Below, in pieces: positions 2,702-64,000 of a stretch of DNA of 64,000 nucleotides. Under the pieces are notes generated by a model, which did not search any database, was not told where the DNA came from, and was given only the letters and a program-made list of their open reading frames with translations. Location of the stretch: the NCBI GenBank assembly GCA_039588015.1, contig JBDHAS010000023.1, positions 6,868 to 70,867 on the forward strand. The letters run 5' to 3'. Position numbers and translations under genes: made by a program. Numbering within the stretch: position 1 is the stretch's first letter; the number at the start of each line of letters is the position of its first letter. Source of the DNA: Gemmatimonadota bacterium. Lineage in GTDB: Bacteria; Gemmatimonadota; Gemmatimonadetes; Palauibacterales; KS3-K002.

Positions 2702-2716
2702 TCGAGCCCTTCGATC

Positions 2717-4295: not shown

Positions 4296-4323
4296 GGTGG
4301 CGTTATTGGTAGGGGTTAGGATT

Positions 4324-4350: not shown

Positions 4351-4380
4351 GATCCCGTTTGAGTATGGAAAGGCGAACCG

Positions 4381-7952: not shown

Positions 7953-7966
7953 CTCGAGGTCACCAC

Positions 7967-23869: not shown

Positions 23870-25711
23870 CTAGGCCTTTTCGACCTTCACCGCACAGAAC
23901 TTGAACTCCGGGATCTTCCCGAAGGGGTCCAGTGCGTCGTTGGTGAGGATGTTGGCCGACGCTTCCCTGAAATGGAACGGTACGAAGACGCTCCCGCGCG
24001 ACACGCCGGGCGTAGCTCGTGCCTTCAGCGTGATCGTGCCACGGCGCGTGCTGAGCGTAACGAAGTCATCCGGTCCAACACCCAGGTCGTTGAGGTCGCC
24101 CGGATTCATTTGGCAGTGCGCCTCCGGCTCGATTGCGTCGAGGGTTTTCGACCGCCGGGTCATCGTTCCCGTGTGCCAGTGCTCGAGCAATCGCCCGGTG
24201 TTCAGGATGAAGGGGTACTCGTCGTCGGGTAGCTCCGCCGCCGGCTGGTACTCGACCGGCACGAACTTCCCGCGGCCGCTAGGGGTGGGGAAGCCGTCGC
24301 CGAAGAGTAGCTGGACCCCGTCGCTATGTATGGGATCGGGACACGGCCACAGCTTGCCCGTCGCTCCCAGGTTCTCGTAGTCGAGCCCGGCGTAGCTGGG
24401 AGCCAACGCGGTCATTTCTGCGAAGACCGCTTCGACGTCCTCGTAGCTCATCGGGTAGCCCATGCGGGTGGAAATCTCGCAAACGAGCTCCCAGTCGAGT
24501 CGCGCTTCGCCTGGTGGGTCCAGTGTCTTGTGCCCAACCTGTACGCGGCGATCGGAGTTCGTGTAGGTACCATCCTTCTCGAAGAAAGAAGTCGCCGGCA
24601 AGATGACGTCGGCGAATTCCGCCGTCTCCGTTAGGAAGATGTCCTGTACGCAGAGGAATTCCAGATTGGCGAGCGCCTTGCGGACCTTGTTCACGTTGGG
24701 GTCCGACAGGAACGGATTCTCGCCCATCATGTACATGCCCTTGATCTCGCCTTTGAGCGCGCCGTTGATGATCTCGACAACCGTGAGACCCGCGCGCGAG
24801 TCGAGCGGCACCCCCCAGGCTTCCTCGAACTTCTTCTGCGCCTGCGGGTCCGACACCTTCTGGTAGTCGGGGTAGACCATCGGAATCAGACCTGCATCCG
24901 AAGCGCCCTGAACGTTGTTCTGGCCGCGCAGCGGATGGAGGCCGGTTCCGGGGCGGCCGACGTTCCCGGTGAGCAGGGCCAGCGAGATCAGACAGCGGGC
25001 GTTGTCGGTGCCGTATGTGTGCTGGGAGATGCCCATCCCCCAGTAGATGATCGCGGCTGCGGCTTTGCCAAAGATACGCGCAATCTCACGGATCCTGTCG
25101 GCGGAGACGCCGCACATCGGTTCCGCAATCTCAGGAGTGTACCGCGATACAAGGTCCCGCAACGCTTCGAAGTCCTCGGTAAAGTCGCGTATGTAGTCGT
25201 GATTGATCAGGTCTTCCTCGATCATCACGTTCATCATCGCGTTGTACAGCGCTACATCGGAGCCTGGCTCGATTTGCAGAAAGTGGTGCGCGTGGCGCGC
25301 GAGCCCTGTCTCGCGCGAGTCGACGACGATCAGCGTCGTGCCATTGGCGGCCGCGTCCTTGATGAATGTGGCGGCAACTGGATGGTTTTCGGTCGTGTTG
25401 CTGCCCGTGACGAGAGCTACGTCCGCGTTGTGTACGTCGCTGAAGACGTTGGTGACGGCGCCCGAGCCGATCGTCTCCAGTAACGCGGCGACCGACGAAG
25501 CGTGGCATAGCCGAGTGCAGTGATCGACGTTGTTCGTGCCGAATGCTGCACGCACCAATTTCTGGAACAGGTAGGCCTCTTCGTTGCTGCACTTCGCCGA
25601 GCCGAAACCGGCCAACGCGTCGGGGCCGGACTCTTCTCTGATGGCCTTGAGCCGCGACGCGGCAAAGTCGAGCGCCTCGTCCCACGTTGCCTCGCGGAAG
25701 GAAGGCAGCAC
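23870..25711 (-). CDS. fdsA: Formate dehydrogenase alpha subunit (FdsA/FdhA, NAD-type), molybdopterin part. This is the C-terminal fragment of a frame-interrupted gene.
   Basis: 613-aa ORF. It carries FREATWDEALDF, the Mo-ligand Cys context HCTRLCHASSV, the block IIYWGMGISQH, and a C-terminal Molydop_binding-like region. It lies in the -1 frame relative to the upstream fragment. Confidence 0.85.
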   Translation of the reverse strand: MLPSFREATWDEALDFAASRLKAIREESGPDALAGFGSAKCSNEEAYLFQKLVRAAFGTNNVDHCTRLCHASSVAALLETIGSGAVTNVFSDVHNADVALVTGSNTTENHPVAATFIKDAAANGTTLIVVDSRETGLARHAHHFLQIEPGSDVALYNAMMNVMIEEDLINHDYIRDFTEDFEALRDLVSRYTPEIAEPMCGVSADRIREIARIFGKAAAAIIYWGMGISQHTYGTDNARCLISLALLTGNVGRPGTGLHPLRGQNNVQGASDAGLIPMVYPDYQKVSDPQAQKKFEEAWGVPLDSRAGLTVVEIINGALKGEIKGMYMMGENPFLSDPNVNKVRKALANLEFLCVQDIFLTETAEFADVILPATSFFEKDGTYTNSDRRVQVGHKTLDPPGEARLDWELVCEISTRMGYPMSYEDVEAVFAEMTALAPSYAGLDYENLGATGKLWPCPDPIHSDGVQLLFGDGFPTPSGRGKFVPVEYQPAAELPDDEYPFILNTGRLLEHWHTGTMTRRSKTLDAIEPEAHCQMNPGDLNDLGVGPDDFVTLSTRRGTITLKARATPGVSRGSVFVPFHFREASANILTNDALDPFGKIPEFKFCAVKVEKA

Positions 25712-26646
25712 TTCGTCGTATTGCGCTCGCCGCTTACTGCCGCTGAAAGCGGTCCCTTGGGATAGGCTTCCGCTCTGCGAATCAGCGGAACGGTGAGGCG
25801 TTGCGGGTGTTTGGCATAGTCGAAGCCGTAGCGGCCTTTAACGCAAAGCCTCGAATCGCTGGCAGGGCTCTCGCGGCCTTCGGCGAACACGATCGTGTTC
25901 TGCTTCTCGTCTACTTGGTATGTGATTGCGCAGCCGACACCGCAGTATGGGCAGACCGAATCGACAGGCTTGAGCTCTGGGCGCGGAACGATAGGCACGG
26001 TGATCGTCTTGTTGGTGAGCGCGCCCGTCGGGCAAACCGCCGCACACTCACCGCAAGACACGCAGGTGCTGTCACCCATCGGCGCGTTGAGATCGAAAGC
26101 GATCCGTGAGTTGTAACCCTTCCCGGTTCGGCCGATCACGTCGTTGTGCTGCACCTCGTTACACGCTCGGATACAACTGTCGCATAAGATGCAAGCAGCG
26201 TGGTCGACGGCGATCACCGGCGACGACATGTCCCGTTGGCGACCGTTGCCCTTTGGGAGGGCGATTGCGGTCCAATCGATACCAAAAGTGCGAGATAGCT
26301 GGTGCAACTGGTCGTCTCCAGTGGATATCTCGCGCAGAGATTCCTGCGGATAGTCGGAAAGCAACAACTCTGTCAGCGTTCTGCGGCAGCGCTGTACTTT
26401 CTCCGACTTCGTCACGACGTTCATGCCGTCGCTCGCTTCACGCACGCAGGCAGCCGCCAGGACGCGCTCGCCAATGTCTACCACACACATGCGGCAGACG
26501 CCGACGGGTCGCAGGCGTGGATCGTGACAAAGCACGGGAATCTCGACGCCGGCTTCCTGGGCGGCCTGCCAAATCGTGGAACCCTTACTGACCGTGACCC
26601 CACGACCGTCTACGTCGAGCGAGATGGTGGAATCATGAGTGCCCAT
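25417..26646 (-). CDS. fdsA: Formate dehydrogenase alpha subunit, N-terminal Fe-S part (2Fe-2S, 4Fe-4S ferredoxin-like, MopB 4Fe-4S). This is the N-terminal fragment of a frame-interrupted gene.
   Basis: The start is the ATG at 26646 (MGTHDSTISLDVDGRGV...). Motifs are CHDPRLRPVGVCRMC, CILCDSCIRAC, CVSCGECAAVCPTGAL, CPYCGVGCAITY and CVKGRYGFDY..RLTVPLIR. Homology is lost after about 25715-25760. The rest of the ORF down to 25417 is out-of-frame read-through. Confidence 0.8.
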   Translation of the reverse strand: MGTHDSTISLDVDGRGVTVSKGSTIWQAAQEAGVEIPVLCHDPRLRPVGVCRMCVVDIGERVLAAACVREASDGMNVVTKSEKVQRCRRTLTELLLSDYPQESLREISTGDDQLHQLSRTFGIDWTAIALPKGNGRQRDMSSPVIAVDHAACILCDSCIRACNEVQHNDVIGRTGKGYNSRIAFDLNAPMGDSTCVSCGECAAVCPTGALTNKTITVPIVPRPELKPVDSVCPYCGVGCAITYQVDEKQNTIVFAEGRESPASDSRLCVKGRYGFDYAKHPQRLTVPLIRRAEAYPKGPLSAAVSGERNTTKCCLPSARQRGTRRSTLPRRGSRPSEKSPAPTRWPVSARRSAATKRPTCSRNWCVQHSARTTSITALGYATLRRSPRYWRRSARAPSPTSSATYTTRT

Positions 26647-26691
26647 GGGACCCCTTTGTCGACGCAGGCTTCGAATATCGAATATCGAATG

Positions 26692-26750
26692 TCGAACACC
26701 GAGCTTCGAAGTTCCACTTGGAAATTGGGTATTCCCTGCTCGGTGTTCGA
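26692..26750 (-). promoter_or_regulatory. Intercistronic stem-loop between fdsB and fdsA (13-bp perfect inverted repeat, 33-nt loop)
   Basis: tcgaacaccgagc (26692-26704) is the exact reverse complement of gctcggtgttcga (26738-26750). The element starts 4 nt after the fdsB stop. On the plus strand it is flanked by four TCGAAYR heptads (26671-26698). Confidence 0.5.
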
Positions 26751-26753
26751 GAT

Positions 26754-28388
26754 TCAAGTACCCACATTTGTATTCTTCCGTCGTTGTTCCAGATACGCTG
26801 CCAGCTCGTCTCCCCAGTACTGTAACGCCGATGTGATCGGATTGAGTGCTACTTGGCCTAAGCCACATATCGACGTCTCTGCCAACGTTTCTTCCAAGTC
26901 GGGAAGGACGTCTAGTATCGCGCCGTTACCTCTGCCGGCCAAGATATCTTCAAGCATTTGCACGACTTTGTAAGTGCCTGTGCGGCAGGGCACGCACTTA
27001 CCACACGACTCGTTGCGGAAGAAACGCACTACGTTGGTCGCGATCTCGATCATGTCTGTGCCGTCCGCGACCACGACCAGCGCCGCGGCTCCGAGCATGC
27101 TGCCGGCGTCCGCGATCGATTGGAAATCGATCGGGACGTCAGCTTTCTCGGCCGGCAGGAAGCGAGAACTGGCGCCGCCGGGGGCGAAAGCCTTGAGCCG
27201 CCGACCGTCGATGACCCCGCCGGCCATCTCGATCAGTTCGGCGACCGTTGTGCCGAGCGGGATCTCGAAGACCCCTGGATTCCCTACGTGCCCGGAGACG
27301 CCGATGAACTTCAGCCCCGAGTGGTCACCTGCGCCCTGCTCCTTCCACCATTCGGCGCCGCGGTTCAGAATGGGCGGGACGAGAGCGAGCGTCTCTACGT
27401 TGTTGATCACGGTAGGAAGACCGCGGAGTCCTTTCTGGCCCGGGTAGGGCGGCTTGTTTCGCGGCTCTCCGCGTCGGTCTTCCATCGCTTCCAGCAACGC
27501 GGTCTCCTCGCCCAGGATATAGCCGCCGGGTGAGACGACGATCTCGATGTCGAACTGGTCGCCCAGGATCCCGCGCCCGCGCGCGTCGTCGAGTGCGACC
27601 TGCATCGCCTTCCTCTCGGGATCGTATTCGTGTCGAATGTAGACGTAGCCCTGCTTGGCGCCGGTCACGAAGGCTGCGATGCACATTCCCTCGACAACCA
27701 GGTGCGACAACTCCGCGAGGATCACTCGGTCCTTGAACGCACCGGGCTCGCTCTCGTCGGCATTGCAGACCACGTACTTGGGGGTCGCCGGTTCTTTCCG
27801 AACGATGTCCCACTTGAGGCCAGTGGGAAAACCGGCACCGCCCATCCCACGTAGTCCTGCCTCCTTCAAGATCTCGATGCATTCGGCAACAGCGGCATCT
27901 CTGTCCGTCCGCTCGAGATAGGCTTTGTATGTCGAGTAGCGCTTGCCGCTCCCGCCGCCGTAGTCGATCCGCCAGCGACGTGGCTGTGCCAATCCCGGCG
28001 ATGGCAGCTTCTCCGCGTTCCGGGCCTGGCGCGCGAGCTCCTCGGGGCCGATACGGCCGACCGGGGTACCATGCACGAGGGCGGTCGGCGCAGACTCGCA
28101 GCGTCCGAGACACGAGACTTCATGAACGTCGATGTCCGATTCACCGTCCAGCAGCTTTCGCACCTTTGAACAGTAATCTCGACCTCCAAGCAAGTGGCAT
28201 GAGAGATCTCGGCAGATAGCCACCTCGGTCTTCCGCGCCGGGGTCCTGCGAAAATGGGTGTAGAAGGAGACGACCTCTTCTACGCGATAGAGGGGGACAC
28301 GAAGCCGTTCGGCCAGGGCCGTCAGGTCTTCATCTCGCAGATAGCCGCGTTCTTCCTGCAGCGAGTACAGCTCGCCGATCAGTCTCAT
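26754..28388 (-). CDS. fdsB: Formate dehydrogenase beta subunit, fused NuoE-like (FdsG) and NuoF-like (FdsB) NAD/FMN/Fe-S modules
   Basis: The N-terminal thioredoxin-like 2Fe-2S part is CRDLSCHL..SCLGRC. The NuoF-like part has GLRGMGGAGFPTGLKW, CNADESEPG and ESCGKCVPCR. I prefer the ATG at 28388. The ORF track extends to a TTG at 28415. Confidence 0.9.
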   Translation of the reverse strand: MRLIGELYSLQEERGYLRDEDLTALAERLRVPLYRVEEVVSFYTHFRRTPARKTEVAICRDLSCHLLGGRDYCSKVRKLLDGESDIDVHEVSCLGRCESAPTALVHGTPVGRIGPEELARQARNAEKLPSPGLAQPRRWRIDYGGGSGKRYSTYKAYLERTDRDAAVAECIEILKEAGLRGMGGAGFPTGLKWDIVRKEPATPKYVVCNADESEPGAFKDRVILAELSHLVVEGMCIAAFVTGAKQGYVYIRHEYDPERKAMQVALDDARGRGILGDQFDIEIVVSPGGYILGEETALLEAMEDRRGEPRNKPPYPGQKGLRGLPTVINNVETLALVPPILNRGAEWWKEQGAGDHSGLKFIGVSGHVGNPGVFEIPLGTTVAELIEMAGGVIDGRRLKAFAPGGASSRFLPAEKADVPIDFQSIADAGSMLGAAALVVVADGTDMIEIATNVVRFFRNESCGKCVPCRTGTYKVVQMLEDILAGRGNGAILDVLPDLEETLAETSICGLGQVALNPITSALQYWGDELAAYLEQRRKNTNVGT

Positions 28389-28411
28389 TGTCCGATTCCC
28401 CCAGTTAGGAA

Positions 28412-30241
28412 TCAACTCGAAACAGCATTGGGCGCCGAGTCTGGTTCGGAATCAGCCGACGGTCTCACGATGGCCAACACCCGGTAGCCGGCGTCGGGTT
28501 CGGGCGGGTCGATCACCGTGAAGGTCGTCAGCTTCCCTTTCTCTCCGATCAGGAACAGCGGGATCTGGTCCTTGTAGCGTTGCTTGAATGTTTGGAAATC
28601 AAATGCTTCCGTCAAATTCGTGGTCTTCACCTCGGCACCGGCATCGAATCGTGCCGTCATGTGCCAGTAGGTGGCGCGCGCGTCGAACAGGAAACGCCCG
28701 CGCAGGTGCCGGGAGACTACTTGTTTCGATGACGCTGCGAGCTGTTCGGGGGGCAACTGGTAGACGTTAGCGTCGCCAAGAATCTCGCTGAAGTGGAGGG
28801 CGGTCAGCGAGTTCACCTCATCGTTCGATGTCAGCGCCAGCAGACGGCCGATTCCTTCCAGCTCGATCGAGTCCAACGCCGCTTCGGTTAGTGCACTCCC
28901 GTAGTAGACGGGTAGTCCTTCCATTCGTGCATCGGCGATGTTCCTGTAATTGGTGTCTACCAGGCGCACCGTGATGCCCTCGTCTTGCAGTTCGCTCGCT
29001 ATGGCGCGTGCCCAGGGGTGCGCTCCGACTATAAGGACCCCTTGCGGATCCACTTGAGCGACACCCAGCAGACGAGCCAGGGGTCCGGCACTCAGCCCGT
29101 AGATCGTGACTGTAGAGATGATCACCAAGAACGTTATGGAAACGAGCCGGTCGGCTCCGGGGTAACCCGCGGACGCGAGTTCCAGGGCGAATATGGACGC
29201 AACTGCCGCCGCCACGATCCCGCGCGGAGCGATCCAGGACAAGAGGATTCGCTCGCGGCGATTGAACTCGGAGCCTAGCGTCGAAAGCCAGACTACCACG
29301 GGACGAACGACCAGGATCAGCGCTGCCAAGAATGCGAGCTCGCGAATCCCCAGTCCGCTCAGGTCATCAAGGTGCAGGCGGGCTGCCAGTAGGATAAACA
29401 AGCTCGATATGAGCAGGACCCGCAGGTTTTCCTTGAATTCGATGATGTGCTTGACATCGACCCGCTTCTGATTGGCTAGTGCGACCCCCATCAACGTGGC
29501 TGTTAGTAGCCCCGACTCCGGCTGGAACACGTTCGATGCCGCGAAGGCGGCCACTACGACCGTCAGCGACAGCGGGCTCTGAAGGAAGTCGGGCACCCAC
29601 TGACGATCGATCAGCAGGACCAGCAGTCCGGCGCCGATCGCTGCGGCGACGACCCCGACGGCGACAGTTCGCCCGAGGCCGAGAATCGCCACCGCCGTTC
29701 CTGCTTCCAAGTCTCCTACCAGTACCGCCTCGAAGACCAAGACGGCCAACACCGCACCGATCGGATCTATCAGGATCCCTTCCCACTTCAACGTTGATGC
29801 GACCTGACGTACCGGTCGGACGTGACGGAGAAGTGGGATGATGACGGTCGGGCCCGTTACCACCAGGATGGCCCCAAGCAGAAGGGCGGGAGCGATGCCC
29901 GCCCCGAGGACGTAGTAGGCAGCGGCGGAGCCGAGTAGCCACGATGCTAGCGCGCCGATCGTCACCAGGTTGCGCACCACTCCACCGATTTCGCGGAGGT
30001 CTTGCAGACGCAGGCTAGCCCCTCCCTCGAACAGGATGATGGCGACAGAGATCGAGACGATCGGGAATAGTAGGTCGCCCATCACCAGGTCAGGGTCCAG
30101 GAAGCCGCTAATGGGCCCGGCGAGAAAGCCAAATAGAAGCAGTACCAGGATGGAGGGCAGATGTATCCGCCACGCCAGCCACTCGGCGGCAATGCCCAGT
30201 GTGACGATGCTGGCGACGGCAATCAGCAGATGCTCGGTCAA
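28412..30241 (-). CDS. CPA1-family Na+/H+ (cation/proton) antiporter with C-terminal RCK/TrkA-like domains (NhaP2/CvrA-like)
   Basis: 609-aa ORF. About 400 aa are polytopic Na_H_Exchanger-like. A soluble domain with VLIVGAHPWARAIASELQDEG (Rossmann-like) follows. Confidence 0.85.
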   Translation of the reverse strand: MTEHLLIAVASIVTLGIAAEWLAWRIHLPSILVLLLFGFLAGPISGFLDPDLVMGDLLFPIVSISVAIILFEGGASLRLQDLREIGGVVRNLVTIGALASWLLGSAAAYYVLGAGIAPALLLGAILVVTGPTVIIPLLRHVRPVRQVASTLKWEGILIDPIGAVLAVLVFEAVLVGDLEAGTAVAILGLGRTVAVGVVAAAIGAGLLVLLIDRQWVPDFLQSPLSLTVVVAAFAASNVFQPESGLLTATLMGVALANQKRVDVKHIIEFKENLRVLLISSLFILLAARLHLDDLSGLGIRELAFLAALILVVRPVVVWLSTLGSEFNRRERILLSWIAPRGIVAAAVASIFALELASAGYPGADRLVSITFLVIISTVTIYGLSAGPLARLLGVAQVDPQGVLIVGAHPWARAIASELQDEGITVRLVDTNYRNIADARMEGLPVYYGSALTEAALDSIELEGIGRLLALTSNDEVNSLTALHFSEILGDANVYQLPPEQLAASSKQVVSRHLRGRFLFDARATYWHMTARFDAGAEVKTTNLTEAFDFQTFKQRYKDQIPLFLIGEKGKLTTFTVIDPPEPDAGYRVLAIVRPSADSEPDSAPNAVSS

Positions 30242-45756: not shown

Positions 45757-47433
45757 ATGGCTAGAACGCTTGTTGTAGGACTGTGCTTGGTGTTCATCTC
45801 TGCGTCTCACGCTGCGGGCCAGGTGCCCGAGAAAGCCGCGGGCCGCCTACTGTTCACGCTCGGTACGACGCCAGCGGGATCGGAGTCTTATAGCCTCGAG
45901 CGGCTGGCCGACGGAGGCTTCCGCCTGAGCGGGAATGTCGACCTTCAGATACCCAGTCTTCACATCGTTCAGGGCGTCGACGTCGAGGCGGACCAGCGGC
46001 TCGCGTTCCGGCGAGCTCGCGTGCTGGCCGCTGTGAATGGCGACACGACGGAGTACACGCTGGTGCGGGCCGACGGCCGCGGCATCCAGAGTGCCGTGCA
46101 GGGTGATTCCACCACGACGGCGGAGATCGAGACACCCGAACGCTCCGTCCTTTTAACCAACAACGTCATTCACCACATCGTTCAATTCGCGTGGCTGTTC
46201 GACGGCGCTCTGGGTGAGTCTCGCGAGTTCGTGGCTTTCCCGCGTGTGCCGGTGACCGTGGAGCTGCAACGTTCCGGCAGCGTCGAGAGCGATGGCCATG
46301 GCCTTGCTGTGCGGCGTTACTACCTCAACATCGCCAATCGCTTGGGTGCCTATGTGTGGTTAGCCGAGGACGGTACGCCGCTGAAAGTCTCGGTCCCGTT
46401 GCAAGCGTTCGAAGCCGTGAGCGAAGCGCACCAGGAGTGGGCACCTTTGTTGACGCCTGGGACAAACCAGCCGGAGGAAGAGACGTCTGAGGCGGTCGAC
46501 TACGCTGCCGAGGAAGTCCGGTTCGAGTCGGACACCATCACGCTCGCTGGTACGCTGACTTTGCCGCGAGGAACGGGACCCTGGCCGGCGGCCGTTCTGA
46601 TTACCGGATCCGGAGCGCAGGACCGCGATGAAAACACTCCGGGGCCGGGCGGACTGAAGCTCGGAATCTTTCGGAGCATCGCCGATACGCTTACGCGGCG
46701 CGGCGTGGCGGTGCTCAGATACGATGATCGTGGTGTCGGCGGCAGTGGGGGGAGCCTTGCCTCGGCGGGCCTGAGCGATCTGGTTGCGGATGTTGAAGCT
46801 GCGGTGCACTACCTGCGCGGCCGTTCGGAGGTCGATCCGGCGCGCGTCGCTCTTGTCGGCCACAGCGAAGGCGGGATCATCGCCCCGATCGTCGCGGCAG
46901 AAGATACGGCGCTGGCCGCCATTGTCGTGATGGCCGGCACGGCGACACCGCTGGACTCGGTTCTGGTGGAGCAGGCCGTCAGTGCTGCCCGTGAAGCGGG
47001 TGGCGATTCGTCAGATCTGGCCGAGTCTAGGGAGCTTATCGAGCGGCTTTCACGGGCGATCCGCGAAGGGAGTGACCTCGACACGCTGGGATTGCCCCCG
47101 GCACAGCAACAGCTTGCCCAGTCGCGGTGGCTGCGCGAGCATGTGCAGCACGACCCGTTGGCGACGATCCGCAGAGTGCGACGCCCCGTGTTGATCGTGA
47201 ACGGCGGACAGGACGTGCAGGTGGCGCCGGAACACGCTCGCCGGCTCGGAGCGGCCCTGGACGAAGCAAATCACCCCGACTACGAGGTCAAGATCTTCCC
47301 GCAGTTGAACCACTTGTTCGCCGTCTCGAGAGGCGAAGGTATTGCTGAGTATGTCGACCCAGACGCAAAGGTCGATGGGGAGTTCCTGAGCTATCTGGCA
47401 GATTGGCTCACGCTGCGCGTGGACCGACGCTGA
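45757..47433 (+). CDS. Secreted alpha/beta hydrolase (S9/BAAT-like) with N-terminal beta-rich domain
   Basis: 558-aa ORF with a signal peptide. The C-terminal half has ITGSGAQDRDE, the nucleophile elbow VGHSEGG, and a late LNHLF His region. Confidence 0.75.
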   Translation: MARTLVVGLCLVFISASHAAGQVPEKAAGRLLFTLGTTPAGSESYSLERLADGGFRLSGNVDLQIPSLHIVQGVDVEADQRLAFRRARVLAAVNGDTTEYTLVRADGRGIQSAVQGDSTTTAEIETPERSVLLTNNVIHHIVQFAWLFDGALGESREFVAFPRVPVTVELQRSGSVESDGHGLAVRRYYLNIANRLGAYVWLAEDGTPLKVSVPLQAFEAVSEAHQEWAPLLTPGTNQPEEETSEAVDYAAEEVRFESDTITLAGTLTLPRGTGPWPAAVLITGSGAQDRDENTPGPGGLKLGIFRSIADTLTRRGVAVLRYDDRGVGGSGGSLASAGLSDLVADVEAAVHYLRGRSEVDPARVALVGHSEGGIIAPIVAAEDTALAAIVVMAGTATPLDSVLVEQAVSAAREAGGDSSDLAESRELIERLSRAIREGSDLDTLGLPPAQQQLAQSRWLREHVQHDPLATIRRVRRPVLIVNGGQDVQVAPEHARRLGAALDEANHPDYEVKIFPQLNHLFAVSRGEGIAEYVDPDAKVDGEFLSYLADWLTLRVDRR

Positions 47434-55384: not shown

Positions 55385-57271
55385 ATGCCCGATTTCAGAG
55401 ATCTCGTAGAAAACGGCAGCGCCCATCTCTTCGACGGCGCGATCGGCACCGAGCTCTACCAGCGCGGCGTTTTCATCAACGTCTCATTTGACCAAATGAA
55501 CACGGACCGCCCCCAAGTGGTCCGTGAGGTACATCGCGCGTACCGGGAGGCCGGAGCGGAGATCCTCGAGACCAACACGTTTGGCGGCAATCGCGTGCGG
55601 CTCGATCGATACGGTCTGGGCGACCGGGTCTATGATGTGAACAAGGCTGGCGCGGAGCTCGCCCGCGAAGTGGCCAGCGACGACCTGTATGTGGCTGGTT
55701 CGATAGGACCCTTGGGCATCCGCATCGAACCTTACGGGCCGACGGCGCGTGAGGAAGCCCGCGCGCTCTTCCGGGAACAGGCTGGGGCGCTCGCTGCTGG
55801 GGGCGCCGATTTATTCGTGATCGAGACCTTCAGCGACCTGTCTGAGATCGAACAGGCAATTCTGGGGTGTCGGGACGCCGCCGATCTTCCGGTGGTCGCC
55901 CAGATGACGGTCTACACGGATGGAAACACCTTATACGGCTACGATCCGGCCCGAATCGCACGACATTTGGACAAGACAGGCGCCGACGTCATAGGCCTGA
56001 ATTGCAGCGTCGGACCGGCGATGATCCTCAAGGCCATCCAGGCGATGGCGGATGTGACCGACCGTCCGCTGTCGGCGATGCCCAACGCGGGGCTGCCGCG
56101 CGAGGTGGAAGGCCGGAAGATGTACATGGCGTCGCCGGAATACTTCGCCAAATACACGCGTCGACTCCTCCAGGCGGGCGTTCGGTTCATCGGCGGATGC
56201 TGCGGAACGACTCCGGACCATACCCGGGCGATGGCGGCGCAAGTGCGGGCGCTTCGTCCCCAACAACACGCGGTCGTCGTGGAGAAAGTCCGGGCGGTCG
56301 AGGAGCGGGAAGCGGAGCCCGGTCTGGATCCTGTACCCAGTGCGGAACGTTCCGGGCTCGCAGCGAAGATCGCCGCAGGTGAGCTCGTCACCAGCGTCGA
56401 GATCCTTCCGCCAAAAGGATGTGATCCGACGGATGTGCTCGATAGGATTCATGACCTAAAGCTCGCCGGTGTCGACGCCGTAAACGTTCCGGACGGACCG
56501 CGCGCGATGATGCGCATGGGTGTTTTGGCGACCTGCTCGATCATCGAGCGTGAGGTTGGACTCGAGACGATTCCCCACTATTGCTGCCGTGACCGGAACC
56601 TGCTGGGGATGATGAGCGACCTCTTGGGCGCACACGCCATGGGGCTCCGGAACATTCTCATCATCACGGGAGATCCGCCCAAGATGGGCCCGTATCCGGA
56701 TGCCACGGCGGTGTTCGACATCGACTCCGTCGGACTCACGAATCTCGTGCGCAAGCTCAACCATGGGCTCGACCCCAGCGACAATTCGCTGGGATCGCAG
56801 ACGAGCTTCTTCATCGGAGTCGGCGTGAACCACGCGTCTATCGATCCGACTTACGAGATCGGTCACTTCGAGTGGAAAGTCGACGCGGGGGCTCAGTTCG
56901 TCATCACGCAACCGATCTTCGATGTCGATCAATTCCTGGAGTTCACGGCGAAGATCGGCCACGTGCACATACCTACGATCGCTGCCGTGTGGCCACTCGT
57001 GTCCTTCCGGAACGCGGAGTTCATGAACAACGAGGTGCCCGGAGTTGTCGTGCCGGACGCGGTCCTGGAGCGGATGCGCCTTGCTTCTGAGCGCGGGAAG
57101 GAAGAAGGGATGGCCGAAGGCCTCGCCATCTCGCGCGAGATGGTGGAACGATTAGAGCCGCACGTGCAGGGCGTTCAGGTGAGCGCGCCTTTCGGGAAGG
57201 TCGATTTTGCGCTTCAGGTCTTCGATGCGCTCGCCGGTTGGGAGACCCGAGGGCGCACAGCCATTCCCTGA
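55385..57271 (+). CDS. yitJ: Bifunctional homocysteine S-methyltransferase / 5,10-methylenetetrahydrofolate reductase (YitJ-type)
   Basis: 628-aa ORF. The N-terminal Hcy-binding domain has LFDGAIGTELY, ILETNTFG and the zinc site GLNCS...FIGGCCGTTPDH. The C-terminal half is MTHFR-like (SVEILPPKG, PHYCCRDRN, LIITGDPP, QPIFD). Confidence 0.9.
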   Translation: MPDFRDLVENGSAHLFDGAIGTELYQRGVFINVSFDQMNTDRPQVVREVHRAYREAGAEILETNTFGGNRVRLDRYGLGDRVYDVNKAGAELAREVASDDLYVAGSIGPLGIRIEPYGPTAREEARALFREQAGALAAGGADLFVIETFSDLSEIEQAILGCRDAADLPVVAQMTVYTDGNTLYGYDPARIARHLDKTGADVIGLNCSVGPAMILKAIQAMADVTDRPLSAMPNAGLPREVEGRKMYMASPEYFAKYTRRLLQAGVRFIGGCCGTTPDHTRAMAAQVRALRPQQHAVVVEKVRAVEEREAEPGLDPVPSAERSGLAAKIAAGELVTSVEILPPKGCDPTDVLDRIHDLKLAGVDAVNVPDGPRAMMRMGVLATCSIIEREVGLETIPHYCCRDRNLLGMMSDLLGAHAMGLRNILIITGDPPKMGPYPDATAVFDIDSVGLTNLVRKLNHGLDPSDNSLGSQTSFFIGVGVNHASIDPTYEIGHFEWKVDAGAQFVITQPIFDVDQFLEFTAKIGHVHIPTIAAVWPLVSFRNAEFMNNEVPGVVVPDAVLERMRLASERGKEEGMAEGLAISREMVERLEPHVQGVQVSAPFGKVDFALQVFDALAGWETRGRTAIP

Positions 57272-57353
57272 GCGCTGGTCTGACGTAGGTTGTAACGAAC
57301 CAGTCGCCTCGAGGTGCGGCTCGGCGCGCGTTTCCCTCGGCGCAGGTGTGGTG

Positions 57354-60300
57354 TCAGCGACAAGCGACGAACCGCACACTGCTTTGCCGGTCGGCCACGA
57401 TCTTGGCTAGGCTCTCCAAGACGTAGACGATGTCGTCCTCGGTATTTCCTACACCGAGCGACATACGGATCGCGCAGTGCGCATCTTCATCGGACAAGCC
57501 CAACGCCTTCAGTACGTGGGATGGGTCCGGGTTGCCCGATTTGCAGGCAGAGCCCGATGAGAAGTAGACACCGTGGCGGTCCATGAAGAGCACCAACGAC
57601 TCACCGCGCATTCCGGGAACCGTCATGTTGATGGTGTTTGGCAGGCGCTCCGCTACGTGACCATTCAGCCGCGCGTCGGGCACGACCTCGCGGATTCCCG
57701 CTTCCAGCCTGTCGCGTAAGCGGCTCACGCGCTCCATCTCGCGGTGGTTAAGACGACGCGCGGCAAGCTCGCAGGCCTTACCGAAACCGATGATTCCAGG
57801 GACGTTCTCTGTGCCGGCGCGCAGAGAGCGCTCTTGCCCACCACCGTGGACGACCGGAGACAACTCGACTCCCCGGTTGACGTAGAGCGCGCCCACGCCT
57901 TTCGGGCCGTGGACTTTGTGACTCGACACCGAGAGCAGGTCGACTCCCAGCTCCTGCACATCGACGGGCAGCTTGCCCAGACCCTGAACAGCATCCGTGT
58001 GGAACGTCACACCGCGCTCATGTGCGACGTTGGCCAGCTCGACGATGGGATTCACCGTCCCAACTTCGCTGTTCGCCATCATCACGCTCGCGAGTATCGT
58101 CTCTGGCTTGATGGCCTCGGTTAGCGCTTCGGGCCGGATGCGACCGTAACCGTCGACTTCCAGATAGGTGATCTCGAAGCCAAGCTCGGTCAGGGCTTCA
58201 CAGGTGCGGAGCACCGCGGGGTGTTCAACGGTCGTTGTGATGATGTGGTTGCCAGCACCACGCTTGGCTAGGGCGACCCCCTTTATGGCCAGGTTGTCAG
58301 ATTCGGAACCGCCTCCGGTGAAGATGATGCGGCGCGCGGTGCAGTTGAGAGCCTGTGCTATCTTGCGGCGCGCGCTTTCGACGGCGTCGCGGGCCGTATT
58401 GCCGCGACTGTGGATGCTGGAGGGATTCCCGAACTCTGCTTGCAAGAACGGGAGCATCTCCTCCAACACCTCGGGGTCGACGGGTGTGGTGGCGTTGTGG
58501 TCGAGGTAGACTTGACGTCTCGGTCTCTCCGGCCTGGCGACCTCGACGACGGCCTCGCTTTCGTCTTCGGCGACGTGGCTTACGCTCTCCCCGCTCCCCG
58601 CTTTGGTGACATCGCAGAGCAGGGCCTTGTACACCGGGAATCCGGAGATCGGGTCGTAGCGATTAAGGTCCGTCAGGTCATTTACGTTGCAATCGCGCCA
58701 TTCCTGCGGACCTAGAGGGCCGCCGCCGCCCATGTTGGCGTCTACGGCACCCTCGACTATCTCTTCGGTGACCCGTGCCTGATACTTCAGCCGGCCGCGT
58801 GGGGTGGAGACCCAAACCCAGTCACCGTTTTCTATTCCGCGTTTCTCGGCGTCCCGCGCATTGATCGTCACCTGAGGAACGGGGGCCTTGCGGCTAAGGC
58901 CGGGGACGCCGTGGTGCTGACTGCGGAAGTCGGCGAAGATGCGAGCGCCTGAGTTGAAGACGAGTGGGTAACGCTCGGCCAGGGCCGGCTGGGCTAGCGG
59001 GCCTTCTTGGGGCTCGGTGTAGACAGGCAACGGGTCGTAGCCGTGCTCGTCCAGAATGGAGGAGGCGATTTCGAACTTCCCGGTCGGCGTTCTGAACCCC
59101 GGTTTTCCGTCCTCTCGAAGCCGGCCCTTCTCCCATTTCTTGTACTGCATCATCGCCGTGGGAATCTGGACCTCGCCGCCATTTGCGCGCACATCTTCGA
59201 GCGTGAAGCCCGAGCCCTTTAGGACGTGGCGGAGCAAGTCCTCTTCGGTGCGCGGGTAGCGGTCGCCGTACCCTAGCCGGTCCGCCAGTTCTGTCAGGAT
59301 CAGGTAGTCGTTTCGCGCCTCGCCGATCGGATCGATGACTCTCTCACGAATCTTGAAGACCGGGCCGTAGACCATGTAGGAGGTAATCTCGTACATGGTC
59401 GTGGCGGGCAGCACGATGTCGGCGTAGGCCGAGTCGGCCGTGTGGTGACGGTTGATGCTGACGAGGAAATCCAGCTCGTTGAGTGTCCTGCGCCAGAGCG
59501 CCGGGTCGGGCCAGGCCGTGACGATGGAGCCGCCGAGGATCGTCAACGCGCGGATCCTGTACGGCTCGCCTTTGAGAACCGAGTCGGGGAGAGCGATAGC
59601 GTGTGACTCCCCGCGGTACTGGCTGTACACGGGGAAACGGTCCCGGCCCAGTGCTTTGCGGACGTTGGGGTTCGGGATCAGGCCCTCCCTGTTGATCGGG
59701 AACTGATTTTCACTCATCCGGATAGTCAGACCGCCGGGCACATCGAGTTGCCCGGCCAGCGCCCACAGGGTGAATACGGCGCGGATCGCCTGAACACCGC
59801 TGTCGGAGTACTCGAGTCCCGTGTACATGAGCGGGCAGGCGCCGCGTGCTCGCGCGATACGGCGAGCGAGCTCAACGACTGTATCCGCCGGCACCCCGGT
59901 GATCTCTTCGACGGCGTCGGGTCGGAAATGCTGAACGTATTGCTTGAGCTCGTCGAACCCGACGGTCCAGTCCCGCACGAAGGCCTCATCGTACAGTTCC
60001 TCTTCGATGAGGACATTGATCATAGCCAACGCCAGCGCGCCGTCCGTTCCCGGGCGGATAGCGATCCAATCAGCGGCTACCTCGCGCGCCGTGTGGTTCC
60101 GTTGCGGGTCGATGCAGACCACATGGGCGCCCCGTAGCACCGCTCTTTTGATCTGCTCGTGCGCGAGCGGCGGCGAGTCGGTGGCGGGGTTGGCTCCCCA
60201 GATCACGATCAGCTCCGCGTTCTCGATGTCGTGATCCATGGTGTGGTAGTACTCGCCAAACGTGACGTGCGGCGCGATCATGGCGAACGAGACGTAACAC

Positions 60301-60779
60301 AGCGCGCCGACGCCCAACGTGTTGGGTGAGCCGAAAGGAAAGAGCATGCTGGAGGCTGAAGAGATGGCGACGCCGGCGGGCTGGAAGACGTCGCACAGCG
60401 CCAACTCGAAGCTGCCCCTCCCGGTGTAGATAGCCGTCGCTTCGGGTCCGTGGTCGGTCTTGATGGTCTGAAGCCTGTCGACGATGTACGCCAACGCTTC
60501 GTCCCAAGAGATCCGTTCGAATTCGTAGGTACCCTTGGGGCCGACACGCCGTAATGGGTACTGCAGGCGGTCCGGGTCGTGGACGATCTCCGCCGAATGA
60601 ACGCCGTTGGTGCAGATCATGCCCAACGGGTGATCCTGCGGTCTTGCGGCCTTGATTCTGCCGTCTTCCAGGGTGACGGTCACCCAGCAGCCGGCGGGAC
60701 AGATGCCGCACAGAGCCTCTTTTTCCTCGACACTACGGTTCGCCGCCGTCTCTTGACGGTCGAGCATCACTTCATGCAT
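57354..60779 (-). CDS. Fusion protein: acetylene-hydratase-like molybdo/tungstopterin oxidoreductase module plus NifS/IscS-type cysteine desulfurase (candidate metallopterin-dependent ergothioneine synthase, MES-type)
   Basis: A single uninterrupted 1141-codon ORF. aa 24-56 carry a C-x2-C-x3-C-x26-C 4Fe-4S motif (CGICPAGC...ICTNG). aa about 60-725 are MopB-like (ISWDEALAYI, LIVIWGANPA, IRPGTDGALA, C-terminal Molydop_binding-like WVWVSTPRGRL). An acidic linker covers aa about 726-755. aa about 756-1141 are class-V aminotransferase (VYLDHNATTP, PLP-Lys SSHKVHGPKG, persulfide Cys SSGSACKSG). It lies 3 nt downstream of egtD. Confidence 0.85.
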   Translation of the reverse strand: MHEVMLDRQETAANRSVEEKEALCGICPAGCWVTVTLEDGRIKAARPQDHPLGMICTNGVHSAEIVHDPDRLQYPLRRVGPKGTYEFERISWDEALAYIVDRLQTIKTDHGPEATAIYTGRGSFELALCDVFQPAGVAISSASSMLFPFGSPNTLGVGALCYVSFAMIAPHVTFGEYYHTMDHDIENAELIVIWGANPATDSPPLAHEQIKRAVLRGAHVVCIDPQRNHTAREVAADWIAIRPGTDGALALAMINVLIEEELYDEAFVRDWTVGFDELKQYVQHFRPDAVEEITGVPADTVVELARRIARARGACPLMYTGLEYSDSGVQAIRAVFTLWALAGQLDVPGGLTIRMSENQFPINREGLIPNPNVRKALGRDRFPVYSQYRGESHAIALPDSVLKGEPYRIRALTILGGSIVTAWPDPALWRRTLNELDFLVSINRHHTADSAYADIVLPATTMYEITSYMVYGPVFKIRERVIDPIGEARNDYLILTELADRLGYGDRYPRTEEDLLRHVLKGSGFTLEDVRANGGEVQIPTAMMQYKKWEKGRLREDGKPGFRTPTGKFEIASSILDEHGYDPLPVYTEPQEGPLAQPALAERYPLVFNSGARIFADFRSQHHGVPGLSRKAPVPQVTINARDAEKRGIENGDWVWVSTPRGRLKYQARVTEEIVEGAVDANMGGGGPLGPQEWRDCNVNDLTDLNRYDPISGFPVYKALLCDVTKAGSGESVSHVAEDESEAVVEVARPERPRRQVYLDHNATTPVDPEVLEEMLPFLQAEFGNPSSIHSRGNTARDAVESARRKIAQALNCTARRIIFTGGGSESDNLAIKGVALAKRGAGNHIITTTVEHPAVLRTCEALTELGFEITYLEVDGYGRIRPEALTEAIKPETILASVMMANSEVGTVNPIVELANVAHERGVTFHTDAVQGLGKLPVDVQELGVDLLSVSSHKVHGPKGVGALYVNRGVELSPVVHGGGQERSLRAGTENVPGIIGFGKACELAARRLNHREMERVSRLRDRLEAGIREVVPDARLNGHVAERLPNTINMTVPGMRGESLVLFMDRHGVYFSSGSACKSGNPDPSHVLKALGLSDEDAHCAIRMSLGVGNTEDDIVYVLESLAKIVADRQSSVRFVACR

Positions 60780-60782
60780 GGC

Positions 60783-61844
60783 TTACCGGTTGGTTGCTGT
60801 AGAGAGCGCGCGAATCGTGGGTACGTCTACGACCCGCTCGAGCAGGAGCAGCGCGAACCACTCTCTCTCGTCGGTGAAGGTTCGCCTCACCTCAAACCCA
60901 AAACGGCTGAGCTCGTCTGTAAGTTTCGGCAGGCGGAACTTCCGGCTGATCTCGAGCAGTACCAGTTCTCCGGCGTCGATCTCGAAATGCTGGTCGAGAG
61001 GCTCGACGTATATATCCTGTGCCGCCCCGAAGCGAAGCGAGATCTCCATACGCTCACGCTCTGGGTTCCAGACCGCCACGTGTTCGATCTGTTCGAGGTC
61101 GATCTCGGAGCCCAGTTCGCGGTTCATTCTCGCCGCGTAGTTCGTGGTGAAGCGAGCCGTGACGCCGGCAGCATCGTTGTATGCCGCCTCCAGAAGCCCG
61201 GCGTCCTTTACCAGGTCGACGCCCAACAAGAAGAAGTCTCCGGCGGGAAGGTGACCGGTCACGCTCCGCCAGAAGGCTGTCGTCTCGGCCTCATTGAAGT
61301 TGCCGATCGTGCTTCCCAGGAAGACCACCATCTGGGGTGACAGTTGCCGCAAGATTCGGAGGGCGCTGCCGTAGGTGCCATTGATACCGGTGAATTCGAC
61401 GTCCGAGAAGGTGCCGGAGACCGAGTCATAGGCCTGACGCAGTGCGCTCTCGCTGACATCCACGGGGATGTAGCGCACCGATGCTTCGCCCCGAGTGTAC
61501 GCCGAGAGGAGGTGTTCCGTCTTCACAGAGTAGCCGGAGCCGAGTTCCACCAATGTCCGTGGCCCGGTTATCTCGCGAATGTCATCGGAGTGTGTGGCAA
61601 GTATCGACGCTTCGGTTCGGGTCTGGTAGTACTCTGGTTGCTCGGTGATCGCTTCGAACAGCCGGCTGCCCTCGGCATCGTAGAGGAAACGGCAGTGAAG
61701 CCACTTGGGGTCATCGCTCAGGCCGATGGCCACCGAGCGGGCATACGTCATGAGGGTGTCGCCGGCCTCGGCGGTTTCCACGATCTTCGTTCCGGAGGTA
61801 ACGGCTTCTCGGAAGCGGGAGGGGAAATCAGAGGGCTGCGTCAC
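60783..61844 (-). CDS. egtD: L-histidine N-alpha-methyltransferase (EgtD/EanA type; hercynine-forming)
   Basis: EgtD (Methyltransf_33) hallmarks are DPKW..RFLYDAEGSRLFEAITEQPEYYQTRTE, LVELGSGYSVKT, YIPVDVS, FLGSTIGNF and AYNDAAGVTARF. The track ORF extends to 61988, but that part overlaps galK. I prefer the GTG at 61844, which overlaps the galK stop (GTGA). The alternative ATG is at 61751. Confidence 0.85.
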   Translation of the reverse strand: MTQPSDFPSRFREAVTSGTKIVETAEAGDTLMTYARSVAIGLSDDPKWLHCRFLYDAEGSRLFEAITEQPEYYQTRTEASILATHSDDIREITGPRTLVELGSGYSVKTEHLLSAYTRGEASVRYIPVDVSESALRQAYDSVSGTFSDVEFTGINGTYGSALRILRQLSPQMVVFLGSTIGNFNEAETTAFWRSVTGHLPAGDFFLLGVDLVKDAGLLEAAYNDAAGVTARFTTNYAARMNRELGSEIDLEQIEHVAVWNPERERMEISLRFGAAQDIYVEPLDQHFEIDAGELVLLEISRKFRLPKLTDELSRFGFEVRRTFTDEREWFALLLLERVVDVPTIRALSTATNR

Positions 61845-63034
61845 CAACCGACCTTTTGGACCGAAGCCCCAGGCCCGGCTTCGCTGACGAAAGCCTCTGG
61901 GCTGTGTCCGTACAGGTTCTGATAGGCATCCGAAACCGAAGCCACGAAATCCTCGAGCAAAGCCGCGCTTACCACGTTTACGGTGCAACCGCCGAAGCCG
62001 GCGCCGGTGAGTCGCGCGCCGATGCTGCCAGGCGCTCTCTGAGCCAGAGAGACCAGCGAGTCCAGTTCGTCGGAGCTCACTTGGTAGTCATCCCTGAGCG
62101 AACGGTGAGACGCGAACATCAGTTCCCCGAAGCGTTCCGTCTCCGCTTGCTCCAGCGCCGCTGCGGCGAGGTGCACGCGCTCGATTTCGCCGACCACGTG
62201 CCGAGTACGGCGGTCGAGCGGCGGCGGCAGGTGCCTGAGCAGCGAGTGCAACTGCTCGGGCTCAACGTCACGGAGCGCGCGGATGTCGTCGTCGACGGCG
62301 GCCAAGCGGGTGACCGCTGCTTCGCACTCACGCCGCCGCTGGTTGTACTCGGACGATCGGAGTTCCCGCTCGACGCCGGTGCAGAGAATCACCATTCGCA
62401 GCGTTGCCGGCAGTTTGACCTGCTGGATCTCCAGGCTGCGGCAGTCGAGCAGCAGGGCTTTGCCGGTCTCGGCGCAGGCGGAAGCGATCTGGTCCATGAT
62501 GCCACACTGGACACCGACGTAGTGGTTCTCTGCCTTCTGACAGAGCTTTGCGAGCTCGAGCTCGGGGACGTCGAGGTCAGATGCGTGGCAGAATGCGCTT
62601 GCGAAGGCCACCTCCAGCGCAGCCGAGGACGAGAGGCCGCTGCCAACGGGGACGGTGCTCGTCACGGAGGCGTCCAAGCCACTGAGCGGAAAGCCTGCTT
62701 GCGTCATCGCCCAGGCGACTCCGGCAGGGTAGGCGGACCAACCCTGCACCGATCCCGGTGACAAGCCGTCGATATCAAACTCGGCGGTTTCGTCGAACTC
62801 GGCGGAATAGACTATGACCCGCCTGTCGGGCCGGGCTCGGTAAGCCACGGCGACGTCGAGCTCGACGGCTACCGGCAGCACTAGCCCCTCGTTGTAGTCC
62901 ACGTGTCCGCCGATGAGATTCACGCGGCCGGGCGCCCGGGCTAGCCATTCAGGCTGCTCGGAGAACGCCTGCTGAAAGTCCGCACGCGCTGTCTCGAGAT
63001 TGGAGCGATCGCTTGTCGGGTCTCGCGTTGACAT
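61841..63034 (-). CDS. galK: Galactokinase (GHMP kinase family)
   Basis: 397-aa ORF. The GalK signature is APGRVNLIGGHVDYNEGLVLP. The GHMP motif is PVGSGLSSSAALEVA, with C-terminal GARLTGAGFGGC. Confidence 0.9.
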   Translation of the reverse strand: MSTRDPTSDRSNLETARADFQQAFSEQPEWLARAPGRVNLIGGHVDYNEGLVLPVAVELDVAVAYRARPDRRVIVYSAEFDETAEFDIDGLSPGSVQGWSAYPAGVAWAMTQAGFPLSGLDASVTSTVPVGSGLSSSAALEVAFASAFCHASDLDVPELELAKLCQKAENHYVGVQCGIMDQIASACAETGKALLLDCRSLEIQQVKLPATLRMVILCTGVERELRSSEYNQRRRECEAAVTRLAAVDDDIRALRDVEPEQLHSLLRHLPPPLDRRTRHVVGEIERVHLAAAALEQAETERFGELMFASHRSLRDDYQVSSDELDSLVSLAQRAPGSIGARLTGAGFGGCTVNVVSAALLEDFVASVSDAYQNLYGHSPEAFVSEAGPGASVQKVGW

Positions 63035-63271
63035 CCCTCTTGCATCCCTATCGTGCTACGCAGGTTATGAGGTGCAAGCTACGCCGACCCCGTGCCGGCG
63101 AACAAGATAAGGTAGATGAGCCGAGGCGGGGCCGCACGGCTGCGTTGCGTGCATTTTGTGCGCATTATACTCCTGCCGATCTTCACGTCAGACAGGTCGA
63201 AGAGGCGGGACTCGGAGTTGCGACTGGCGCGATTGGCAGCGGCGCGTAAGCCCGATCTTCGGGAACGGTGA

Positions 63272-64000
63272 GATGGTTGATCCGCTCAGCTTGCTCGAAC
63301 GAACCGACAAGTACTATCTCGGGTCCGGGACCGGCCTGCTGTTCGCCCCGCGTTTCCCCTGCTGGCTCGAGTGGCCCGGCTTTTGGGACGAAGTAGACGT
63401 CTACAACTACCAGCTCGCCCCGCTCTTCACAGTCGCGTTCCTCGAGCTTGCCTCGGGCAAGGCCGGGCCTTCGTTACCATTGCGCCAGCGCGAGCGGCTG
63501 TGGTCGCCGGCCGAGCTCGTCTGCCAGTACGACTTGGGGCGGAATATCCGGGCGCGCGAGCATCGGTCGGTCGTGCCCGGCGGTTGGTACCTCTCGGAGT
63601 GGCTGTTAGAGAATCCGGGAGAGGAGGATCTCGAGTTGGCGGCCGTCGCCTGGTCCGCGCAGGAGACGGCGGAGCTCGATCTGAGTTCGGTCCAGGCTGG
63701 TGCCGGAACGGTTAGCTGGCAGCGGAGACTGATCGATCGGTGTGGAGAGCATCTGGAGGTGGAGGTTTCGCTCGAGGCGCCGGATGAGCCGATCGCTGGC
63801 TCAGCGCTTCTGTCGGAGCGGTCCGCGCTCCAGCCGCGCTGGGAGTTCTCGCCGTTCCCAGAGAGGTGGCATCGCGGATTCGGGGATCCGATCCAGCCGA
63901 GCGGCATCAGCAGCAGCGGACTGTTGTACGCTGCTGCGGCGTCTCGGTTGGTCGTTCGTGCCGGAGGTATGGGGCGCGTCACGTTGCAAGCGCGAGTCGC
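63272..64000 (+). CDS. Hypothetical protein, N-terminal 243 codons (open to the window end). Possibly the N-terminal beta-sandwich of a glycoside hydrolase, which is speculative.
   Basis: From the ATG at 63272 the frame stays open through 64000, verified codon by codon. Third positions are strongly GC-biased. It is absent from the ORF track because it has no stop. It is divergent from galK. Confidence 0.55.

Follow-up and report, generated by a model that had tools for sequence, protein, structure and literature searches.

We have analyzed a window of 64,000 nucleotides (the whole stretch of DNA under study) from contig JBDHAS010000023.1 of an uncultured Gemmatimonadota bacterium. The window very probably contains a two-gene operon for O2-independent biosynthesis of ergothioneine, comprising egtD and a gene for metallopterin-dependent ergothioneine synthase (MES). 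The latter encodes a 1141 amino acid (aa) fusion of a MopB-superfamily module, predicted to carry bis-molybdopterin guanine dinucleotide (bis-MGD), with a cysteine desulfurase dependent on pyridoxal phosphate (PLP). This reading is based upon the architecture of the genes, the conservation of residues, the orthology of the protein to enzymes already validated and the linkage of its gene to egtD. The mechanism, metal and product proposed for the protein would be those suggested by orthology and by the work on the enzyme from Caldithrix abyssi. An earlier reading made from the sequence alone had proposed that the locus encodes this route, and the sequence-level features used to recognize MES in PMC9516567 are all found here.

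The MES family was described by Beliaeva & Seebeck (JACS Au 2022; PMC9516567). The sequence-only reading had described this literature correctly in substance, but four homologs had been studied rather than one. These derive from C. abyssi (CaMES), Ca. Abyssubacteria (AbMES), a Euryarchaeote (EaMES) and a vent metagenome (hvMES), and all produced ergothioneine from hercynine (trimethylhistidine, TMH) in E. coli, wild-type CaMES accumulating it to > 1 mM (PMC9516567). The isolated C-terminal module is a cysteine desulfurase, and activity requires both modules on one polypeptide. The CaMES substitutions C153S, K952A, C1074S and C1135S abolished ergothioneine production, while C1097S halved it. 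CaMES K952A swaps 34S between ergothioneine and TMH, from which it follows that the metallopterin step is reversible, and isotope experiments on CaMES were argued to indicate a requirement for the desulfurase in every turnover and not for activation (PMC9516567). When we searched for later primary work on MES (structure, in vitro reconstitution or occurrence in Gemmatimonadota) the literature gave only the 2022 paper and reviews citing it.

A fused MES gene adjoining egtD

The MES gene is one open reading frame (ORF) on the minus strand (57354..60779), with an ATG start, 1141 codons and a stop codon at 57354-57356. The frame is thus uninterrupted as earlier claimed, and a plus-strand reading of the same interval has stops throughout. 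The third-position GC of the ORF is 0.78, in a window of 62% GC. The N-terminal metallopterin module comprises residues 1-725 (58605..60779, minus strand) and was correctly assigned to the MopB superfamily, matching Pfam Molybdopterin at residues 71-501 (E = 4.5e-44) and Molydop_binding at residues 616-719 (E = 1.4e-19), together with Molybdop_Fe4S4. It is followed by a linker of 30 residues (726-755; 58515..58604) that is variable in sequence and predicted to be disordered. Its length is as originally described, but with seven acidic and five basic residues it is only mildly acidic.

The desulfurase module occupies residues 756-1128 (57396..58514, minus strand), and is complete, as had been proposed. 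It is of the NifS/IscS type, as judged by Pfam Aminotran_5 (residues 757-1118, E = 5e-81), by a sequence search of the PDB (E = 2e-115), by Foldseek and by the NCBIfam NifS model TIGR03402. The score of 512.5 bits with the last is under its equivalog cutoff of 530.75, so we regard the module as NifS-like rather than as a NifS in its own right. The protein ends with a tail of residues 1129-1141 (57357..57395; …RFVACR), the proposed persulfide swinging arm. Neither a twin-arginine nor a hydrophobic signal sequence is found at the N-terminus (MHEVMLDRQETAANRSVEEKEAL), in agreement with the initial reading, and no MES-specific model was returned by Pfam or NCBIfam for the protein.

It might be asked whether the fusion is an artefact of assembly or frameshifting that joins two genes, especially as the formate dehydrogenase alpha gene in the same window carries a frameshift. 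The chance of this appears negligible. The same uninterrupted architecture, with a length of ~1125-1173 aa, recurs in > 100 independent proteins from databases and, among the best 80 related loci, in every one with a contig of sufficient length. Those loci include closed chromosomes and cultured strains of Geomonas, Geotalea and Pelotalea. Moreover the four fused MES are active, and the fusion into a single polypeptide is obligatory for that activity.

The egtD gene lies upstream on the same strand (60783..61751), encoding an L-histidine Nα-methyltransferase of 322 aa from the likely ATG start at 61751. The mechanically called ORF reaches a TTG at 61988, overlapping galK. Between the stop codon of egtD (TAA) and the ATG of the MES gene there is only gcc, the 3-nt separation reported in the sequence-only reading. 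The protein matches Pfam Methyltransf_33 (E = 1.5e-98), and scores 316.2 bits with NCBIfam TIGR03438, over the cutoff of 290.9. On comparison with EgtD of M. smegmatis (PDB 4uy7) the residues Tyr39, Phe47, Tyr56, Gly161, Thr163, Asn166, Tyr206, Thr213, Glu282 and Ser284 are kept, while Met252 is replaced by Ile. These are the histidine-contact positions of the M. smegmatis enzyme.

The established routes to ergothioneine, EgtD/EgtB (aerobic) and EanA/EanB (anaerobic, using a rhodanese), share with the present one the trimethylation of histidine by an EgtD-family enzyme and the end product. They differ in the sulfurizing enzymes, to which MES is unrelated; in MES the sulfur would come from cysteine and pass by a persulfide relay to a Mo or W center. 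Length and GC at third positions were used to call ~50 ORFs in the 64 kb, which were then searched with Pfam. None contained FGE-sulfatase/DinB_2 (EgtB), Rhodanese (EanB), GATase (EgtC) or a second Aminotran_5 domain (EgtE), in agreement with the sequence-only reading, in which no homolog of these enzymes was recognized in the window.

Orthology to validated MES and the predicted catalytic residues

Over its full length the window MES is 63% identical to AbMES, 60% to CaMES (UniProt A0A7V4WV16), 57% to EaMES and 54% to hvMES. These values are to be read as lower bounds, since the supplement of PMC9516567, our source of the reference sequences, was a machine-read PDF with errors of optical character recognition. 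Apparent changes at Cys31 of EaMES and at Lys955 of hvMES were treated as artefacts of that process. The proteins share the two-module organization (1141 aa here, compared with 1136 aa), co-encoded egtD and the absence of a signal peptide. They differ in origin, for the present host belongs to an uncultured Gemmatimonadota lineage, and the validated MES to Calditrichaeota, Abyssubacteria, Euryarchaeota and a vent metagenome. The nearest relatives beyond the 90%-identity cluster of the window MES are 82% identical to it.

Taken alone, the N-terminal module is 59-68% identical to those of the validated MES, 33-57% identical to unfused paralogs and 30% identical to acetylene hydratase. A phylogenetic comparison with acetylene hydratase and CaMES had been suggested as a check. 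In a neighbor-joining tree the module falls inside a clade with the four validated MES and every sampled fused homolog, and not with reductases, dehydrogenases or acetylene hydratase. The unfused paralogs are sister to the MES clade, with acetylene hydratase outside. When the module was searched exhaustively against a set of cluster representatives (50% identity), the fused family was reduced to one full-length representative (P0121), the next full-length matches being unfused proteins of 724-735 aa with 57%, 49% and 45% identity.

Four unfused MopB proteins (P0122, 735 aa; P0124, 735 aa; P0127, 724 aa; P0129, 726 aa) are 43-57% identical to the N-terminal module. They retain the Fe-S cysteines, the metal-ligand cysteine, YTGLEYS and DPISGFPVYKALLCDV, and are without Cys129 and the desulfurase. 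They may represent MES in split form, or may sulfurize another substrate.

The best solved relative of the N-terminal module is acetylene hydratase (Ahy, PDB 2e7z), an enzyme with W-bis-MGD and a [4Fe-4S] cluster (E = 6.7e-72). Both have the four-cysteine Fe-S motif and a cysteine as metal ligand, are cytoplasmic and have no redox subunits as partners. They differ in that acetylene hydratase has no fused desulfurase and performs a hydration, whereas MES forms a C-S bond. A further difference lies immediately after the second Fe-S cysteine, where 2e7z has Asp (C-x2-C-D), the catalytic Asp13 of that enzyme, and the window MES has Pro28 (C-x2-C-P).

These comparisons bear on whether the N-terminal module might be a conventional redox MopB enzyme, akin to polysulfide or thiosulfate reductase or to formate dehydrogenase, with a desulfurase whose sole task is the maturation of its cofactor or Fe-S cluster. 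Sulfuration of the molybdenum cofactor by desulfurases is a known theme of maturation, polysulfide reductase PsrA is matched in the PDB search (E = 2.3e-58), and there are sub-threshold NCBIfam matches to the formate dehydrogenase alpha subunit and PhsA. Yet those family scores are all far under the curated cutoffs, and PsrA ranks behind acetylene hydratase, a non-redox enzyme that is the closest relative both by structure and by sequence. There is no signal for twin-arginine translocation, and no electron-transfer or membrane subunit adjoins the MES gene. Given in addition the isotope data on CaMES discussed above, we regard such a role as very improbable, and MES remains the preferred assignment.

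The C-terminal module is ~42-44% identical to NifS/IscS proteins of known structure (E. coli IscS, 1p3w; H. pylori NifS, 5wt2), with the PLP lysine within an SSHK motif and the mobile-loop cysteine within SGSAC. Unlike those enzymes it is fused to a metallopterin module and has an added, conserved tail R-F-x-x-C-R-COOH. While NifS and IscS pass their sulfur to IscU, NifU or TusA, the acceptor in MES would be located on the same polypeptide.

All nine residues named in PMC9516567 are kept in the window MES. The [4Fe-4S] motif is Cys24-x2-Cys27-x3-Cys31-x24-Cys56 (60612..60710, minus strand, as are all codons given here), its cysteines aligning with Cys14, Cys17, Cys21 and Cys48 of CaMES. The final spacing had been given as x26, which is in fact that of the C. 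abyssi enzyme. Cys161 (60297..60299), located in GVGALCYVSFAMIAPH, is the predicted ligand of the Mo or W center, and corresponds to Cys153 of CaMES and Cys141 of acetylene hydratase. The Schiff-base lysine for PLP is Lys955 in SSHKVHGPKG (57915..57917; CaMES Lys952), and the persulfide-forming cysteine of the mobile loop is Cys1079 in SSGSACKSG (57543..57545; CaMES Cys1074), both motifs being present as first noted. Cys1102 corresponds to CaMES Cys1097, and the penultimate residue Cys1140 (codon 57360-57362) to Cys1135. In an alignment with 71 database homologs that are 62-82% identical to the window MES, no variation is seen at Cys24, Cys27, Cys31, Cys56, Cys161, His954-Lys955, Cys1079, Phe1137, Cys1140 or Arg1141, and the conservation of Cys1102 is at least 90%. 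Binding of Mo or W bis-MGD and of a [4Fe-4S] cluster is thus predicted from the domain matches together with the conserved ligands.

By analogy with CaMES the pathway would proceed as follows. EgtD would convert L-histidine and three S-adenosylmethionine (SAM) molecules into hercynine. The C-terminal module of MES, with PLP on Lys955, would convert L-cysteine into alanine, leaving a persulfide on Cys1079 of the loop. The sulfane sulfur could then move within the one polypeptide from Cys1079 to Cys1140 on the flexible C-terminal tail, which would hand it to the Mo or W bis-MGD center ligated by Cys161, generating a metal(VI)=S species. Attack of C2 of the TMH imidazole on the sulfido ligand would release ergothioneine and leave reduced metal(IV), which a new persulfide would re-sulfurize. 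With Cys24, Cys27, Cys31 and Cys56 the protein appears to keep the [4Fe-4S] cluster as in acetylene hydratase, with no net redox role assigned to it.

The exchange of 34S by CaMES K952A raises the question of whether MES might act mainly in reverse or by exchange, in salvage or in shuttling sulfur between imported ergothioneine and TMH, instead of in net synthesis. We think this quite unlikely, since the desulfurase module is intact with all its catalytic residues invariant, the gene is translationally coupled to egtD, whose product makes TMH de novo, and wild-type CaMES builds up ergothioneine to the level noted above. Net synthesis is therefore the function we favor.

An AlphaFold model of the protein, built from the 71-sequence alignment, has a mean pLDDT (predicted local distance difference test) of 84.5 and a pTM (predicted template modeling score) of 0.78. 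Confidence is low only in residues 1-14, 141-160, the linker 731-750, the Cys1079 loop 1078-1082 (pLDDT < 50) and the tail 1133-1141, which is predicted to be flexible. The linker, the loop and the Cys1140 tail are presumably mobile segments, as the relay needs; a mobile loop and a swinging arm fit the low confidence of these regions in the model. The best Foldseek matches are acetylene hydratase for the N-terminal module (2e7z; template modeling (TM) score 0.82 on the target) and IscS/Nfs1/NifS for the C-terminal module (TM 0.90-0.96). No PDB chain was found that spans both modules.

One further element emerges from the alignments. Cys129-Asp130 (60390..60395) lies ~30 residues ahead of the metal ligand Cys161, and is invariant in 71/71 fused homologs and in the four validated MES. 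In the closest unfused paralogs this position is NE, RD or WQ, and the surrounding stretch is a gap in the alignment with acetylene hydratase. The equivalent residue is not mentioned in the main text of PMC9516567, nor is there a mutant of it in that study. We tentatively suggest that Cys129-Asp130 might be an unrecognized functional element of MES, and from the conservation this pair would be the prime candidate for an additional residue of the relay or of catalysis. Its role might be to accept the persulfide last, beside the metal, or to activate the imidazole C2 as a general base. The adjacent residues 141-160 (SASS.LFPFGSPNTLGVGAL) are highly conserved and run into Cys161. They form the sole low-confidence segment within the N-terminal module of the model, which may be explained by the cofactor being absent from that model.

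Genomic association with egtD

When one genome for each GTDB species was scanned with a pattern, 348 related stretches were obtained, of which we examined the best 80. All contain full-length fused homologs, 63-84% identical to the window MES. In 63 of these 80 loci the fusion gene has an egtD homolog at a distance of no more than 600 nt. Eleven of the 17 loci without egtD have a contig end within ~1 kb upstream; leaving these aside, the proportion is 63 of 69 informative loci (91%), so that the association of the fusion with egtD across phyla, put forward as a check, is observed. The egtD gene is upstream on the same strand in 48 cases, downstream on the same strand in 13 and divergent in two. 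The hosts of the best 80 loci include Gemmatimonadota, Acidobacteriota, Desulfuromonadales/Geobacterales, Myxococcales, Scalindua/Brocadiaceae, Nitrospirae, Actinomycetota and others. The Gemmatimonadota loci include closed chromosomes from metagenome-assembled genomes (MAGs) and Ca. Kutchimonas denitrificans, and among cultured Desulfuromonadales/Geobacterales the fused MES is found in Geomonas paludis, Geotalea sp. SG265 and Pelotalea chapellei. Six informative loci lack an adjacent egtD (L003, L021, L041, L042, L057 and L060). Every key residue is kept in them, and in L003 the sequence just ahead of the MES gene is a run of N; they do not constitute evidence against the association.

The neighbors on either side are galK, encoding galactokinase (61841..63034, minus strand; Pfam/NCBIfam), upstream, and a gene for a bifunctional homocysteine S-methyltransferase/methylenetetrahydrofolate reductase (MTHFR) (55385..57271, plus strand; NF006396, 701 bits) that is convergent with the MES gene across an 82-nt gap. 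We considered both as members of the module and rejected them; they are syntenic only among Gemmatimonadota loci, and the conserved unit is therefore the egtD-MES pair alone. The location of the MTHFR fusion next to a pathway that uses three SAM per product is suggestive, but may be inherited gene order. A scan for promoters and terminators over 57150-63300 gave sites no more numerous than in shuffled sequence, so an operon boundary cannot be claimed.

The linkage is also informative about the substrate. The fusion might sulfurize something other than hercynine, such as another imidazole or heterocycle, or use selenium from selenocysteine to make selenoneine, with the adjacent egtD reflecting a related betaine product. 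The authors of PMC9516567 suggest that Mo enzymes may sulfurize heterocycles oxidatively in a broader range of cases, selenocysteine lyases are relatives of the NifS-type enzymes (from the NCBIfam and PDB matches), and no function is assigned to the unfused paralogs at 45-57% identity. Nevertheless the window MES is 54-63% identical to four ergothioneine-making enzymes and lies within their clade, the adjoining EgtD keeps histidine-specific residues and scores over the equivalog cutoff, and the linkage to egtD is that of the great majority of informative loci. We consider a different substrate to be improbable, and hercynine the likely one.

A number of points weigh against the assignment of an ergothioneine operon. 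The activity of MES has been observed in vivo only, the full-length enzyme not having been purified (PMC9516567), and for that reason the metal, the cofactor and the mechanism of the family remain proposals. The match of residues 21-67 to Pfam Molybdop_Fe4S4 is weak, at 19.1 bits under a cutoff of 22.7, despite which the four Fe-S cysteines are invariant. No moa or mob genes for biosynthesis of the molybdenum cofactor are found in the 64-kb window, and a second route to ergothioneine could be encoded outside it. Lastly, MES is confined to strict anaerobes according to PMC9516567, a lifestyle for which the window holds no diagnostic genes (see below).

The host and the wider MES family

There are no oxidase genes or other genes diagnostic of lifestyle in the 64-kb window. 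A locus for an NAD-type formate dehydrogenase is present on the minus strand (23870-28415). It comprises a NuoF-like subunit (26754..28415) and an alpha subunit in two parts, N-terminal (25417..26868; Fer2_4, Fer4, Molybdop_Fe4S4) and C-terminal (23870..25711; Molybdopterin, Molydop_binding). The frame switches at ~25715-25790, between '...PLIRRAEAYPKGPLSAAVSGERNTT' and 'EVLPSFREATWDEAL'; either the assembly has an error of a single base here, or the gene is a pseudogene. At the active site there is a codon for Cys (CTRLCHASS) instead of TGA for selenocysteine. This interrupted gene is a hint, not proof, that the host uses molybdo- or tungstopterin enzymes. Beside the locus is a gene for a protein of the bacterial archaeo-eukaryotic release-factor-like families (baeRF_family3/7/6; 22691-23848, plus strand; E = 7.5e-48). 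Elsewhere in the window there are peptidases at 1085-9946, 33396-38383 and 45757-47433 (M2/M3-like, M20, S46, M14, S9 and S15/S33-like), plus an OPT oligopeptide transporter, and this abundance suggests a proteolytic, peptide-scavenging lifestyle.

The nearest relatives of the window MES are from Gemmatimonadota MAGs, including that of Ca. Kutchimonas denitrificans. Cultured Gemmatimonadota are aerobes, and with the gene present in this phylum the distribution of MES may extend beyond strict anaerobes. Full-length MES was also observed in MAGs labeled as Rickettsiales (L041, L057 and L071), Polaromonas sp. UBA4122 (L060) and Nannocystaceae (L028), and in Myxococcales MAGs (L021, L024, L026, L030 and L065). 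These are usually regarded as aerobic lineages. Either such MAGs are mis-binned, or the restriction of MES exclusively to anaerobes is no longer valid.

The window MES is a clear ortholog of the published family, from a phylum already included there; it is neither new nor rare. The rarity suggested in the sequence-only reading is not upheld, given the 348 related stretches in a scan of one genome per species, and the three Gemmatimonadetes MES in Table S1 of PMC9516567. What does attach to this group of proteins is a problem of naming. The members of the 90%-identity cluster of the window MES (P0001, P0271-P0281) appear in public databases as 'cysteine desulfurase NifS', 'IscS subfamily cysteine desulfurase' or 'anaerobic selenocysteine-containing dehydrogenase', and none in that cluster is annotated as an ergothioneine synthase. 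Because MES is misnamed in this way, and no Pfam or NCBIfam model for it was returned, the capacity of sediment and anoxic microbiomes for making ergothioneine is under-called.

The class is still mechanistically unexplored. MES is the only known Mo- or W-pterin enzyme that makes a C-S bond, and it has never been purified at full length or solved structurally. Orthologs from different lineages, here a Gemmatimonadota of 62% GC, are candidates for an MES that can be purified and for the fermentative production of ergothioneine.

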